From a plasmid: a DNA stretch of 64,000 nt. Below, one piece after another: positions 7,817 to 13,800 of the stretch (its first letter is position 1; every line of letters begins with the position of its first letter). The position numbers are program-made. The stretch is taken from sequence record NZ_CP095281.1; one strand, given 5' to 3'.

Positions 7817-10800
7817 TGAGCAAGCCGGTAGCCAAAATGCTGCACTTACTGATCAACTCAAGCAACAAGCCGAAATGCTGGCCAGATTGCAAGATGGCCT
7901 GCTGCAGGGAGCGGAGCGGTTCGAACAGGCTGCCAGTGAGGCTCGCCATGGCTTTGTTGAGATGAAGCAAACGCAGCAACAATTCCTGACAGGGGTGAGA
8001 ACCGAATTCAATGCCTTAGGGAAGGTGCGAATAAGTCATATGGCACGAGAGCATTTACTGGTAACCCATTGATATTAAATGACTAAAATTTTCATTTTTT
8101 GTTCGTGGGATACTTGTTCGCACTTTCCTTAGCGAAAGGCAGGCCCCCACTACCAGATGCACCAATATCAGATGTTCTGGAGTGGGAGTATTCAGGAAAT
8201 CGACATCACCCGACAGAAAAGCCGGTGTCAATATTAGAACCGTTGATAGAGGCATTCACTAAGCCAGGGGATATTGTTCTAGATCCGTTCGCGGGTTCAG
8301 GTTCGACATGCGTTGCGGCTGCAAGATTGGGGCGTCGGTTTATCGGTGTTGAGTTATTACCTCAATATCATAAAGAAGCCATAGCAAGGTTGGAACCATT
8401 CTCCAAACGACAAGCTGCATGAGGTAGTGATATGAAAATTCATTCATTAGATAAGATAGAGTATGTCTCTGAATTGCTGCGACTGGCATCTGTGGCAATT
8501 AATGAAATATTAGTTATTGAGTTGACACATGAAGACAAAAAAAGTCGTGTAATTGACAATCTATTGAAGAGGCATCTTTGCACAATTGAGGCTGATGTTT
8601 TATCAGCATACGAGAAAACTGGCATCATCAGTTCTTGCTTGAATGAAATAAGGGGGGAATAAGAGGGGGCCCCTTCGGCTCGCGCTAAAGCGCTCGTCCG
8701 TCCCACTCGTCTATGCGGTCGGCTTCGCCGGCCGCAGACTCGCCGAGCCCGTTCCGGTCTCGGGCTATCGCTAGGGCCGGATGCCTAAAAGAAATGCAGC
8801 CTTAATATCGCTGTCCGCAAGCGGACCCACCCTCTCCGTAGTAACTGTCCTGTCCCGGGCCGCAAAGACGGTTTAGCAGGGAGGGGGGGGGGAGCCTGCC
8901 CCAGGTAAACACTCCAAAGAAGTTTCGGCCGACCTGCCACCTTCCCGAATATCAACAACGGAGGGGCGGCCTTATACTCGCTTGCGCTGCGCGCGCTCGT
9001 TTTAATATGTAGAATAAACCAGCCATTTTATTTTAATTGCAGCACTGCAATTCATTGCCTGATATAACCATCGTGATATAATTAAACCAGTTAGAAAACC
9101 GACGCCGGGGCGTGGCGATAAGGAGATGATATGAATACTGCAATGCCTGTTTCTGTTTCACCATCTTTCATCCCAAACAATGAAATTGGCATAATGATTG
9201 CCAATTTCAAAGAAAGGGTTGAATGCGTGGATTATGATGATGATGAAAATGCTCTGAATACAACCAGACTCATAACGGAAAGAACCTCATTCGTTGTTGA
9301 GGTGTCATTGTACGGCGGGATCACATTGTGCATTTCACGGGAACGTCTTAGCACGGAATTTTTCCCTTCATTTTCGGAATGCGATGATAAAGACGATAAC
9401 GAAGTTGAAGTGGTTTATAGTGCAGCAGTGTTGAAGGCAAATGAAGCCTACGCCGAACAAGTATATAATATCGAATGGTGTTCTGATTGGCGTTCTGATT
9501 GGTTTCCTCATGAGAGCAGCATCGCCGATGGAATTAAAATGGCGTGGGAATATCTGAATAACCAGGGAAGCTCTACGGGTGATGAAGTGTCATTTCCGTT
9601 TCCAAGAGCGGGCATGGCTACAGTTTTTGATTATTCATTCAAACGCTGGCTCTACCGCAAGAATATGGATTGGGTAATGAGCGTAATGGCCAGCAGGTTT
9701 CAATCCCATTTTTCGAGTTAATAAATAATGCAGAAACAGTAATGCCATGGTGGGGAGAAAGTCAAAGCCCCACCAACAAAAATAACAATGTGAACGAGCA
9801 TTATATTATCGTATAATAAAGATATTCGAGAGGCATCCTCTCAATCCCGTTGGCCGGGGTGCGTGGCCCGAGGAAAAGATAGTGAACGAAATAATTTTTA
9901 GCATCAGACCCCAAAGATCTACCGAGTATGTAAGACCAAACTACCCGAGCGCAGTAGACACGGCATTATTGAATATCCTGAGTGCCGAAGCCTTGTTATG
10001 CGAACTACGCGAAACAAAGCAGTTAGACCTCCCCGTGGCAAAACACCTAGAAAAGGCAAGCGATAGTGCCCTTAACATGGTGATATTCGCAGGCGAGGTA
10101 CTGGGACACTATCTTGCGGCAGGTTCACCAGTTGCAGCACTGCATATATCAGTACGCATATCAAAGGCCAAGTTAAACTGCTTCAATCAGGTGCTGGCCC
10201 GCATCGAGGGTTTAGAAAAATCCTGGTATGTAAGGGATGCTTGGGAATATGGGTTAAGGACCGGGGAGTCAAAATATAACGAGATGTGGGGGACGGAGAG
10301 AACTCCTAATGCTCCCTGGTTGTGGGAGTAAGATTAAAGGGGCCTAGGCCCCTTTTTTTTTGCACGCCCTTCGTATCGTGATCATATCGTCAGACACTAT
10401 CAGTAACGCACCATCTACCTCATCAGCCCGCTTCAGCTCATCAAAGTTAACAACCCGATAACCACCTCCCTGTTTATCTGTCAGGTAGATACCCAACTCC
10501 CTTATAAGCGAATCCGCAGCCTGAAACTGTTGGTGTTGCATAGGACTATCCCGAATTTTTATTAGCAGCCTCGATTGGGCTGTTATATTTTGCACGTAAT
10601 ACCAGTTGATGCAAATAGATTTTTACACTCATACGCCGTGTGGCTTTATTAAAACATTTTAACGCCGTTACACCCTTAAAAGCGCCTAGGGGCAGACCCA
10701 ACGACCCTGGAAGGAAGCCTCACGGCAGGGGGAGAAGAAGGGCACACCCTACGCACCGGCTGGTGCAAGGGGTTCCATCGGATGAATCCCTTGCTGCGTC

Positions 10801-13800
10801 TGGCCTAGAGGGTGGGTTACGCGAAAGTTACACTATAGCCCATGAGAACCCATCTATGGGTTACGCAAAATGCATTATTGAGGTTACGATGGTGCCTTGG
10901 TGTGCTGATAATGCTATTATCGCGTAACGTGAAGAACGTTACGCGAGGTGATAAGTGAGGCAGAAAGACATCCAGGTTAGGCATCGTAGGTTCCTGGAAA
11001 CCGAGGCGATGACAGTGAAGTTTAGGGGCTTGGCTCCTGAGATGATCCAGCACATGTCCAGAACGGACAGTGAGACCTTGAGTGACTGGATAAAGGACGC
11101 TGTTAGGTTCAGATTGCGTTATGACTTGAAAGGGGATTTGTCACTATCAGAGTTCATATCGCTTCAGCCTTCAATCCCCTTTAAAGCAATTGACGCCAAT
11201 GCAGATGAGGTTGTTATTAGAGCCCTTGAGGAGTTAAACGCTATGGCCGGTCGGGCGGATAGCGATATGGCTCTTGTTATAAGGATGTTGTTCCAGATTA
11301 CTCATTTCATGAGGGCTGGACTTGGCGATTTGATTTTTTCTAATCCAAATCTCAATACAAATGGAATCGACGGGCAAAGGGTTTTTGAGGAAGGAAAAAA
11401 GGTATCGCATGAATTCCTAAAGAGAGCAAGGGGGGAGAATGTCGGGTAATAATACCAGGTCGGAAGAGCTAGTTCGTGGTGGGCAGATTGTCCAGCATAA
11501 GTTCACGATGTTGGCTCAAGTTATAAAAACAGCAGCATTCTTTGGTGTGATAGTGTTTATAGCAACCGTCTATGCACGATACATGCTGGGAACTGACGAC
11601 TATCAACGATACTTGTTTGGGACAGCGTTAAAGACTACGGTGTATTTTCATCCCAACCCTAAAGATACCATGGAGTTCATTACACCCAATGGAGACAAGA
11701 GAATAGTTCGAGTTGTTGATGTTATAAACAACAAAAGAGTGTCTGATAATTTTGATTACGTTATGACGCTCATCGAAAGTGGAATGCTCATTGGGGCAGG
11801 TCTATTTGTTTTATTAGTGCTGCTACTCATATTTTATTTCATAAGATATGGTAGGGAAACAATGAGGCGTGAGGTGATTAATGGCATTCCCTTGGAGCCA
11901 GATTCTCGGAAAGTAATAAATCTTATTGAGGCGATGAATGCCAGGGTTGGGTATGTATCAAGATACCATGTTGGTGGTATACCTTTCCTCCACAACACTG
12001 AAACTTTCAGCATTCAAATTACGGGTGCGCAAGGGCAAGGTAAGTCGCAAACTATTTGTGCCTTGCTTGATGAAATAAGGGCCAATGGGGACAGAGCTAT
12101 CATTTACGATAAGCAGCGCTCCTTTATAAAGTATTACTATGACGAAAAGATAGATAGGATCGTCACTCCTTTTGATGAGCGGTCGGTAGGGTGGAATATA
12201 CATGCTGATGCACATGCAATTCATGAATATGAGTCAATTGCACAAGCAATGATACCCATGCAGGAAGATTCCAACAAAGATCCATATTGGGTCTTGGGGG
12301 CAAGGACAATATTGGCGGTAACTGCGGCAAAGTTTAGACATGAAAACAGGTTGAAGACAAAAGATCTGCTACAGACTCTTTATAGCCTTTCGTTGGCCGA
12401 TATTGCCAAGCTCCTCAAAGGTACACCTGCTGGTGCTTTAATTGACGAAAAGAACCCAAAAACATCTGAGTCAATTCGCTCCGTGCTTACTGCCTATATT
12501 AAGTCAATGAACTATGTCTTTGATGATGTGCCATATGAAGATCTTTTTAGTTTTAAAGAATGGGTGTCTGGTGGTTCTGGATGGTTATTTCTAACATCGA
12601 GGGGAGACATACATACAACGGTTAAGCCGCTTTTTACCGCAATGATTGAAGTGGTAATAAAAGCATGCATGATGCTTGATCAAGATAGAAATAGACGGAT
12701 ATTCATCATACTTGATGAAGTACAGTCTTTGAACTTTATACCGGCGTTTACCGATGGGCTTGCAGAATTAAGGCAGTTTGGCATTGTATTTGTAATAAGT
12801 TATCAGCTTCAAGCTCAATTAAGGACAATCTATCGGGAAACAGGAGCAACCACGATTAGTGGATTGCTAGGAACCAGGGTTGCATATCAAACACCTGATG
12901 AGCAAACAGCTTCTTGGTTAAGTAAGAACTTCAGTGAGACTGAAGTAAAAGAAATGGAGACAACTAAAAGCTTTGGGGGGTCATCATTAAGAGATGGCGT
13001 TACGGTAAGCCCGGACACAAAAAAAAGAGAGGTCGTTCCTCCTAGCATGATTATGAACCTTGAACCACACAATTGCTTCGTGAAAATGGCAGGTGGGTCA
13101 ATTCCAGTTACACAACTTTATATTCCTTACAAACATCGAGATGAGATTGCAAGCCCATTTAAAGAAAGAGATTTGTCTCACCTTGCATTCGGACATCTGA
13201 CGTTCATTGATGATCAAAGCCACCAAAGCACAGAAAACAATGAACATGCCAGACAGCCCAAGCCTGTTGACGTTGAGGGTATTGTTCCGCCTCGAGCCAA
13301 GCAATTACCTAAGAAGCCTAAAACTGTGAGGAGGGACAAAACAGAAGTTGCAGAACTGCAAATGCAGAAGCCACTGTTTGATCCCACATTTATGAGTCCA
13401 TTTACCGAAAAAGAAAGTGTAAGTGGGAGTAGTGATAATGAGGCTTTGACGCTAGTGCTTACCGGTTCAGAAGCTGCGGAGATAATTGCACATGCCGATG
13501 GTCAGTATCTTGAGGTCACAACACTTGAGCCTCTGCATGAAGCTGAAACAGTTAATGATGAAGTGAGAAGCCTGGATAACAAGCAGACAAGATCACTTTC
13601 AGAACCGGACTTGGAGATATAGCCAATGCTATCTTTATCAAACATGACATCTGCATCCGGTGCCGCTCAGTATGCGGCATTAGGTGATGATTACTACATG
13701 GATGCCCCAGATATAATGCCAGAAGAATTATTGCCTGATGTAAGCACAGGCAACACCCCAATTCTTCAAGAAGATGAAGTGATAAGTGGTGGTACTGGTA

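Follow-up and report, generated by a model that had tools for sequence, protein, structure and literature searches.

A GC-rich leading-region element of a pAsa8-family Aeromonas plasmid, shared with filamentous phages, as a candidate complementary-strand origin on the transferred strand

What is the function of the GC-rich, non-coding block that lies in the leading region of a conjugative plasmid between the remnant of an orphan methylase gene and two genes of no recognizable family? The question is raised by a 64,000-nucleotide stretch of the plasmid record NZ_CP095281.1 (hereafter, the window; all positions refer to its full length), in which the interval from 8.1 to 10.75 kb is what a MOBF conjugative plasmid of the pAsa8 family from Aeromonas retains of its leading region next to oriT. 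The original prediction for this locus put the block forward as a candidate for a single-strand promoter of the Frpo/ssi type or a structured RNA that drives early gene expression in the recipient. The reading that we favor, with about an even chance of being correct, is that the element, which is modular, repeated and structured, serves as a single-strand initiation (ssi) signal; it would act on the transferred strand via priming, as a complementary-strand origin of the sort on which filamentous phages depend. The leading-region architecture that surrounds it is genuine but truncated, belongs to a known plasmid family and is ordinary in itself.

The strand that enters the recipient can be told from oriT. 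On the minus strand, from plus coordinate 10766 down to 10740, the sequence reads 5'-GCACC AGCC GGTGCGT AGGGTGT/GCCC, the slash marking the predicted nick site (nic) at about 10743/10744; the geometry is the same as in the nic region of R388, which consists of an inverted repeat, 7 nt and the nick. The GGTGT/G core is shared with F, where the site was located on the minus strand of the F record (L007; L numbers are our labels for the loci compared), opposite the tra genes, and with R46, where it faces the leading region and has the relaxase behind it; the nic positions of these reference plasmids are those given in the literature. The site is kept in five relatives (L001, L008, L009, L010 and L013), in one of them with a different inverted-repeat loop. 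A plus-strand match to the R388 nic, ATAGCCC at 10835, which would reverse the polarity, was rejected as it is absent from L010, L013 and L008, all of which keep the minus-strand site. A nic-like sequence located on the minus strand, together with a gene order that matches that of F and of the intact relatives, makes the minus strand the transferred one; what lies to the left of about 10743 is therefore the first DNA to enter, and the two genes next to the element, orf196 and orf149, use the transferred strand as their template. The polarity originally proposed thus holds, together with the templating of both genes by the transferred strand (the open reading frames, ORFs, are on the plus strand and nic is on the minus strand) and the rightward orientation of traD, encoding the type IV coupling protein (T4CP; 11439-13622), and traI, encoding a TrwC relaxase (13626-17075). 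An oriT had also been rightly expected here, but not at the right place: the best nic candidate lies about 90 bp to the left of the suggested 10.83 kb.

The element stands out by composition, with a GC content of 0.58-0.645 across 8600-8999 against 0.36-0.45 in the flanks. The GC-rich block without a long ORF that had been noticed at 8663-8960 is real, with edges that conservation moves to about 8657 and 9000. It is 92-98% identical among plasmids in which the preceding ORF of 76 codons (orf76) and the following orf196 are far more diverged, and this contrast with its neighbors points to selection on the element. The block is not, however, densely self-complementary as had been thought. The folding of either DNA strand and of the RNA, for the block alone or together with the promoter region, was compared with that of dinucleotide shuffles; the z-scores range from -0.9 to +0.2 (-0.73 for the element together with the promoter region; -0.4 on the transferred strand for the block and for its pAsa8 copy), no more than the composition gives. 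Only local hairpins find support, which comes from covariation.

The evidence that bears most directly on function comes from filamentous phages. Modules B-C of the element (8786-9000) match small Aeromonas replicons, namely, pAerXII, p6_SCLZS52 and Aeromonas phage MBa-2020a, as well as several IMG/VR contigs. Every one of them encodes Zot and G2P-type replication proteins, which identifies them as filamentous phages or their replicative forms. The E-values against the inovirus-type replicons L006, L015, L016, L090 and L091 range from 1e-11 to 6e-26, and module B is 75% identical to pAerXII 3501-3593. The first seven sequences, which were found independently, contain invariant boxes at fixed spacing: read along the minus strand, hairpin alpha comes first, then ATAA, hairpin beta, GCCGMAAC, a C run and CCTGCNAAACC, and the box CCTGCTAAACC is separated from TATAAGGC by 85-88 nt throughout. 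A spacing-constrained search pattern, of which TATAAGGC, GCCGMAAC and CCTGCNAAACC were part, retrieved 24 viral and 21 metagenome contigs. Across the 47 sequences aligned, the stem of hairpin beta is paired in 282/282 cells and includes two covarying pairs, GC/CG (31:16) and GC/AT (32:15), both outside the positions fixed by the pattern. The inner stem of hairpin alpha occurs as GCGC, GGCC, GGGC and GCAC, all complementary, and its outer stem is fully Watson-Crick in L115 and L127; in other phages, an alternative hairpin, AGGGGC-loop-GCCCCT, takes its place. For the first small phage/plasmid set of modules B-C, RNAalifold gave a covariation term of +1.6, which is uninformative.

This homology is strict with respect to the strand. 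When each locus was oriented by the motif and marker genes were placed by tblastn, all inovirus-type loci (about 38 listed, some of them duplicate contigs, with G2P or unrelated Rep_trans initiators and Zot proteins that are 20-81% identical) were found to carry the phage genes on the motif strand; in the plasmids, the genes for relaxase, T4CP, methylase, ParB, ArdB and RadC are opposite the motif strand at 6/6 loci. In the phages, with about 30 filamentous-phage contigs in all, the module is intergenic; zot ends about 70 nt ahead of it, and the replication gene follows after 450-1000 nt. Given that inovirus genes are encoded on the packaged strand and that leading genes are templated by the transferred strand, the motif strand is the physically single-stranded form in both phages and plasmids. 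Between the two, however, the module is inverted relative to transcription, which argues against a duplex upstream element as well as against an RNA, and for a function of single-stranded DNA (ssDNA). Priming of the complementary strand would be the simplest function common to incoming phage and plasmid strands. The minus-strand origin of Ff phages is formed by hairpins B/C and is primed by RNA polymerase, whereas in origins of the G4 type DnaG primes at a CTG beside hairpins. Modules B-C resemble these complementary-strand origins of ssDNA phages in their location on the viral strand of the inovirus intergenic region, in their size of about 135 nt and in the presence of two or three short hairpins and of conserved single-stranded boxes, a CTG among them; a CTG beside hairpins recalls, in particular, the primase-dependent G4-type origins.

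Module A, the left-hand part of the element, has other relatives. It is about 75% identical to the stretch between the antirestriction gene and ParB-psiB-psiA of Serratia MOBP/MPF_I plasmids. When four copies from Aeromonas were aligned with five from Serratia (A6), 98.9% of the cells of its fold were paired, and seven pairs have changed on both sides, with none changed on one side only, compared with 0-1 in slid controls. The copies fall effectively into two clades, so that the changes amount to at least seven double substitutions and not to many independent events; nevertheless, it is difficult to account for such a pattern unless a folded single strand is under selection. A covariance model built for module A matches only the Aeromonas and Serratia copies, and a 17-mer from this module found, in viral contigs, chance matches in coding sequence only.

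The element is, furthermore, a repeat with a regular position. Related plasmids carry two copies each, one ahead of radC or an antirestriction gene and the other ahead of the orf196 homolog; in pAsa8, the tandem duplication of a 6.5-kb unit that has copies at its borders brings the number to three. The duplicate units have identical protein accessions, which suggests that the duplication arose by unequal recombination between copies of the element. This unit of pAsa8 (NZ_KX364409.1, 54.9-68.4 kb; L092, L001) consists of the element, the antirestriction gene, a 399-amino acid (aa) gene, ParB, the methylase and the 76-aa ORF. A palindrome of the TTGCAGCACTGCAA type comes after every aligned copy, and the promoter is kept in the copies preceding orf196: the pAsa8 copy ahead of the antirestriction gene is followed by a variant palindrome and diverged downstream sequence, and the pAsa8 and pAsa8-b copies before the gene in the orf196 position keep the promoter. 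In the window, the palindrome reported earlier at about 9047 is indeed present, as ATTGCAGCACTGCAAT at 9036-9051, and the window contains 57 matches to its core where 1.1 would be expected, some of them ahead of parB and repA. The sites TTGCAGCACTGCAA (or ...CTGCAG) also make up two tandem arrays, repeating about every 187-200 bp, at 17153-18515, directly after the relaxase gene, and at 32554-35268, and there are single TTGCAGCACTGCAA sites at 25470, 28698, 49046, 53635, 57899 and 60394; the whole looks like a plasmid-wide operator or centromere system. ParB/KorB, to which the original prediction assigned the repression, would be a candidate for the binding protein; the ParB encoded in the window, at 49092-50213, has 373 aa.

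If the element is a priming signal, conjugative entry could proceed as follows. The relaxase would nick the minus strand at about 10743/10744, and the strand would enter with its 5' end first, leftward through orf149, orf196 and the element. On DNA coated with SSB, the small conserved hairpins would then flank the single-stranded boxes ATAAGG and CCTGCNAAACC, the latter with its CTG, and hairpins and boxes together would recruit host priming, be it by the DnaG primase, the PriA primosome or RNA polymerase. The primer would be extended toward the 5' end of the transferred strand, that is, rightward in the window, so that the adjacent sigma-70 promoter, the operator and orf196-orf149 would quickly become double-stranded, ahead of the rest; this direction of growth fits the constant order element-operator-promoter-genes. 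Both genes would fire early and would then be shut off as a plasmid-wide, palindrome-binding repressor builds up. The role would be that of an ssi, as known from F Frpo and the ssi sites of ColIb, but achieved with no hairpin that bears a promoter.

The alternative that survives best, although we consider it rather unlikely, is a CUP-type element that acts as duplex DNA, namely, an upstream regulatory cassette with regulator binding sites that is at the same time a portable recombination site shuffling leading genes, with no ssDNA role. The IncN CUP elements of pKM101/R46 were reportedly described by Delver and Belogurov in 1997. As read from the R46 record, a GC-rich repeat of 300-400 bp stands before several leading genes, and between the repeat and the gene come a promoter, a repressor site and a conserved leader. 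The element has this layout, as well as the recombination-prone copies, and two short motifs are shared, a 19-nt core, TTAGCAGGGAGGGGG, present in five R46 CUP copies (E 0.035), and a small hairpin like CGAG-C-NNN-TTC-NNN-T-CTCG. Loss of CUP regions by recombination between repeats is on record (PMC3490853), and the duplication in pAsa8, bounded by copies, is what recombination of this kind predicts. However, the operator here is TTGCAGCACTGCAA rather than the ArdK sites; the R46 CUPs fold more stably, on either strand, than the element does (z of -2.5 to -4.2 versus -0.4); and the homology is non-significant, with nhmmer E-values of at least 2 and no hit of the module A covariance model in R46, which is why we call the element CUP-like in layout and not a member of the CUP family. 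Moreover, a promoter-upstream duplex element would not be expected to be inverted relative to transcription in the phages and yet constant relative to the single-stranded strand, and duplex protein-binding sites have no need of the compensatory changes that keep the hairpins. Within R46, the four leading-region copies of TTAGCAGGGAGGGGG have the same orientation relative to the downstream genes, and the copy beside the oriV iterons is inverted. The respective CUP copy (L003, 32800-33100) adjoins these iterons in the orientation opposite to that of the leading-region copies, a placement that would suit a priming site for vegetative replication.

Considerably less plausible is a structured RNA, that is, transcription of the block by read-through from the methylase operon or from a promoter of its own to yield a non-coding RNA, a stabilizer in a 3' untranslated region or an insulator. 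Covariation supports a folded single strand of DNA and RNA alike, and the block begins right after the stop codon of the 76-aa ORF. Nevertheless, an Rfam scan of 7500-11500 at E-values up to 1 returned a terminator-like fragment only and nothing for the element, the block has no promoter inside, and sense transcripts carry opposite module strands in plasmids and phages, so that one RNA function could not serve both.

A single-strand promoter of the Frpo type, in which a long stem-loop on the transferred strand rebuilds the -35 and -10 hexamers and RNA polymerase transcribes orf196 from ssDNA, has in our estimate only a slight chance of being correct. The ssi/Frpo single-strand elements are said to have been introduced by Masai and Arai in 1997. 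F Frpo both primes and transcribes, and ssi signals are found in leading regions (PMC9849209, PMC12672017, PMC11541004). The element resembles Frpo1 and Frpo2 of F, ssi1-3 of ColIb-P9 and the class 1-3 promoters of pESBL (PMC9849209; PMC12672017) in that it is non-coding, GC-rich, repeated, located upstream of leading operons, oriented for the transferred strand and close to genes for an orphan methylase, KlcA/ArdB, ParB and PsiA, so that its position and orientation are those expected of this class. Unlike them, it has no long stem-loop, no rebuilt -35/-10 and no sequence similarity to its supposed counterparts, and its ordinary duplex sigma-70 promoter and operator are located downstream of the element, not inside it. 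On the transferred strand, F Frpo2 has z-scores of -6.4 to -8.2, the klcA-upstream region of F -8.1 and the Serratia leading-region intergenic regions -4.4 to -7.6, values that the element, at -0.4 to -0.9, does not approach. The predicted stem carrying promoter hexamers was not found: 8657-9000 contains no -35/-10 pair on either strand, and the real promoter at 9055-9082 has no inverted partner. A blastn comparison of the element with the F leading region produced no match, nor is there any similarity to F Frpo. Thus, the ssi-like half of the original Frpo/ssi idea gains support from the strand-consistent homology to the intergenic DNA of filamentous phages, and the Frpo half gains none, for want of excess folding, hexamers and similarity. 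By every test run, the element appears to be distinct both from Frpo classes 1-3 and from CUP.

The phage homologs invite a further comparison. In Ff phages, the packaging signal is situated at the start of the intergenic region, after the last morphogenesis gene, and is strand-specific, and the module, too, follows the last morphogenesis gene at about 70 nt and is specific to the viral strand. Modules B-C could then be morphogenetic, and the plasmid copies would either allow packaging by inoviruses, a form of hitch-hiking, or be inert relics of phage-plasmid recombination. We regard this as improbable, to much the same degree as the Frpo-type promoter. The Ff-type signal is a single long hairpin, whereas here only short hairpins are conserved and the overall folding is unremarkable; the plasmid copies, being strongly conserved, multiple and placed before leading-region promoters, fit a role in establishment better. 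A marginally fainter prospect is that of a captured morphogenetic or entry signal, by which filamentous-phage machinery would recognize the transferred strand of pAsa8-type plasmids and, for example, package it in co-infected donors; if this were the case, conjugation and inovirus spread would be linked in Aeromonas beyond a shared priming site. The conserved part was also inspected for a dif/XerCD-like phage attachment site, by eye only, and no AT-rich 28-mer of that type was seen. Least probable of all is that the block is a gene fragment or a selfish repeat without function: its GC content is foreign to the plasmid and assemblies often break within it, as they do at repeats, but there is no long ORF, the short ORFs within it have no Pfam match, terminal inverted repeats and target duplications were not seen on reading the sequence and the alignment (no dedicated repeat search was made), conservation is far above that of the neighboring genes, and compensatory changes maintain the hairpins.

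The interpretation of the element as a complementary-strand origin also has to face several observations that weigh against it. The overall folding of the element is no better than that of shuffled sequence. A third hairpin, gamma (GCAGG/CCTGC), is not conserved. The invariance of the boxes in the 47-sequence set is partly by construction because the boxes belonged to the search pattern, their first sighting having been in the seven independent sequences. As the phage lineages are mosaic relatives, the independent trials of orientation are fewer than the contigs. All compensatory changes are strand-symmetric, so that covariation cannot tell which strand folds, nor DNA from RNA. Finally, with the packaging signal and the plus-strand origin located in the same intergenic region of the phages, homology alone cannot single out a complementary-strand origin.

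Leading regions decide the survival of a plasmid in the first minutes within a new host. To our knowledge, the signals so far described as acting on the incoming single strand are Frpo-type hairpin promoters only. The element suggests that there is another way, namely, a compact single-strand signal with several hairpins that stands ahead of ordinary promoters and is exchanged between conjugative plasmids and filamentous phages. Should it prime, this would explain how leading genes are switched on early without hairpin promoters, would supply a signature of sequence and structure for finding such sites in other plasmids, and would provide candidate minus-strand origins for an uncharacterized group of inoviruses. 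Since pAsa8 is a conjugative multiresistance plasmid of fish pathogens, the establishment step is also of practical interest.

Table 1. Features of the leading region and its borders, in window coordinates
Feature	Position	Strand	Basis or remark
Mobile-element end cutting off the leading region	8008..8133	.	96-99% identity to many plasmids
Orphan PF01555 DNA methyltransferase, C-terminal remnant	8126..8422	+	PF01555 match; alignment with pAsa8 methyltransferase
76-aa ORF (orf76), conserved partner after the methylase	8432..8662	+	Same 231-bp ORF follows the methylase in pAsa8, L010, L011 and L013
Module A: closing stem and small hairpins	8668..8785	-	Alignment A6, covariation
Module B, middle part, variable core	8786..8869	-	Shared with pAerXII and contig L015; alignments A1, A2, A3
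Conserved single-strand box 5'-CCTGCTAAACC-3' (contains CTG), C run on 5' side	8870..8880	-	No variation among the first seven sequences
Hairpin beta: stem GGCCG-C / G-CGGCC, loop of about 35 nt	8927..8971	-	Alignment A8, 47 sequences
Hairpin alpha (ACGAGC-G-GCGC-GCA-GCGC-AA-GCGAGT) and ATAA linker of the invariant TATAAGG	8972..9000	-	Stem variants
Palindromic operator ATTGCAGCACTGCAAT	9036..9051	.	Just upstream of -35; overlaps the promoter's upstream edge
Sigma-70-type promoter TTGCCT-16-TATAAT with TG extension, serving orf196	9055..9082	+	Only good promoter; downstream of the element
orf196, acidic ORFan, fast-diverging positional allele	9131..9721	+	ORF listing, homology searches
Leader motif CCGGGGTGCGTGGC	9854..9867	+	About 15-28 nt before the orf149 start codon; variant at about 9106 before orf196
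orf149, ORFan, predicted helical	9882..10331	+	Homology searches
Intrinsic-terminator-like hairpin closing the orf196-orf149 unit	10336..10355	.	Rfam terminator-like fragment
oriT core: inverted repeat GCACC-AGCC-GGTGC, then GT-AGGGTGT/GCCC	10743..10766	-	nic predicted at 10744/10743
Dtr (DNA transfer and replication) genes, transferred last: orf164 (accessory candidate), T4CP, TrwC-type relaxase	10955..17075	+	PF10412 E 7e-103; PF08751 E 5e-76

The plasmid backbone to which the element belongs is best seen in its relatives. The closest records are the Aeromonas plasmids pAsa8 and pAsa8-b, with about 89% identity starting at window position 8606; conjugation of pAsa8 has been demonstrated, and it bears a Tn1721 derivative (PMC10673383). 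In the relatives L010 and L013, the intact order is PsiA, several small genes, RadC, an Antirestrict-family gene (PF03230; KlcA/ArdB-type), a 399-aa gene and ParB/KorB, continued by a 214-aa methylase, a 76-aa ORF, the GC block, a 183-197-aa gene, a 149-aa gene, a 164-aa gene, the T4CP and the relaxase, and every leading gene points toward the relaxase and oriT except psiA, on the opposite strand. The presence, upstream, of PsiA, RadC, KlcA/ArdB-type antirestriction, ParB/KorB and a full methylase in these intact relatives bears out the assignment of the locus to a leading region. Methylase, small ORF, antirestriction gene, ParB and PsiA of L010 and L013 are reminiscent of the F/IncI leading set, with its single-strand methylase of the M.EcoGIX family, KlcA, ParB-like protein and PsiA/PsiB (PMC7736820, PMC11541004); unlike that set, the window keeps only the dead 3' half of the methylase, and its two oriT-proximal genes are lineage-specific ORFans. 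The anti-defense and establishment content of the leading region in the window is the methylase remnant alone, with a fuller set in L010 and L013, and neither ssb nor psiB was seen in it.

The orphan methylase tail that had been recognized here is confirmed: 8099-8422 matches PF01555 with an E-value of 1.7e-25 in a Pfam scan, over profile positions 155-219 of 221 only, and corresponds to residues 107-214 of the 214-aa pAsa8 methyltransferase, with 83% identity. The remnant is non-functional because the N-terminal half is gone. Authentic methylase DNA begins near 8126-8134, given that 8008-8133 is a mobile-element end with 96-99% identity to many unrelated plasmids, of Aeromonas as well as enterobacteria, in several of which a methyl-accepting chemotaxis protein (MCP) is annotated at this place; an MCP-like ORF remnant is found at 7683-8072, and the mobile element is probably Tn1721-like. 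By interrupting the methylase gene, it leaves a leading region that is a 2.6-kb stump. The 76-aa ORF that follows has no family match in Pfam or PHROG.

Both genes downstream of the element exist as described, the first encoding an acidic protein of 196 aa and the second a protein of 149 aa; neither has a Pfam or PHROG match, and they appear to be ORFans limited to Aeromonas plasmids and related metagenome contigs. The orf196 product (pI 4.4, net charge -15, which is a weak and non-specific criterion for a DNA mimic) has just two relatives among 1.8e9 representative proteins, exhaustive HMMER search included, and one of the two is the product of the pAsa8 gene in the same position, with 31-32% protein identity. 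This low identity (window 9131-9721 versus L001 8520-9071), next to about 70-95% for the element and the next gene, means that the orf196 position behaves as a hypervariable slot at a fixed place. Anti-defense genes often look like this, diverging quickly in one position while an element next to them stays conserved; a DNA-mimic role of orf196, as envisaged in the original prediction, is neither supported nor refuted. The AlphaFold2 model of orf196 has a mean pLDDT of 56.8 (one model of five), and in a Foldseek search of the PDB the best E-value was 0.11, with nothing below 0.1 and TM-scores of at most 0.26, the model being too weak to exclude a DNA-mimic fold. For orf149, a word-indexed search gave five homologs, from Aeromonas genomes and unlabelled metagenome contigs, the full-length ones being at the same position; those that have names are from Aeromonas, save one partial, 96-aa match labelled Bacillus pumilus on a 328-bp contig. 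The mean pLDDT of its AlphaFold2 model is 38, and the model is unusable.

The leader motif CCGGGGTGCGTGGC occurs nine times in the leading region of L013 (805-10736), against 0.22 expected, and once in the window. It is a small GGCC...GGCC hairpin placed shortly ahead of the Shine-Dalgarno sequence or start of several leading genes, and of psiA on the other strand; it could serve the leading regulon specifically, as a leader for translation or regulation. The plus strand encodes the methylase remnant, orf76, orf196 and orf149 alike, and the sole minus-strand leading ORF is orf83 (10344-10595). This ORF of 83 aa (65-95 aa in relatives) is the nearest to nic, and its expression could be possible only once the complementary strand has been made.

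A genome-wide scan with an 18-nt core, GGTTTRGCAGGRAGGGGG, was of little use, with 68/70 matches due to chance and only two Aeromonas rivuli contigs real. Roughly 16 of these matches lie in Paraburkholderia, Burkholderia or Caballeronia (L021, L023-L025, L033, L043, L048, L052, L056, L060, L065, L066, L077 and L083-L085), several with the same 20-mer, and may represent an unrelated repeat family.

Beyond the leading region, the right part of the window encodes ParA, ParB, an IncFII-type RepA, AbiTii and a Tn3 transposase, and the left part contains curli genes, a truncated uvrA, an IS1595 transposase and an IS21-like fragment; from this gene content, the window is a plasmid backbone joined by mobile elements to foreign DNA. 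In window 1-8133, csgG and genes for curlin-repeat proteins, uvrA cut at residue 542, the IS1595-family transposase, the IS21-like helix-turn-helix fragment and the MCP-like remnant precede the backbone, so that this portion either marks a junction of plasmid and chromosome or is chromosomal DNA that was captured. The stretch 55753-60282, which lies between repA and the Tn3 transposase gene, carries genes for a DUF6685 protein, a tyrosine recombinase and an AbiTii-family abortive-infection protein, which look like plasmid defense cargo. Downstream of the relaxase gene, on the minus strand (19061-22855), a 1264-aa protein is encoded that contains about six tandem Pro/Gln-rich units of about 33 aa each (repeats at about 19700-20400).

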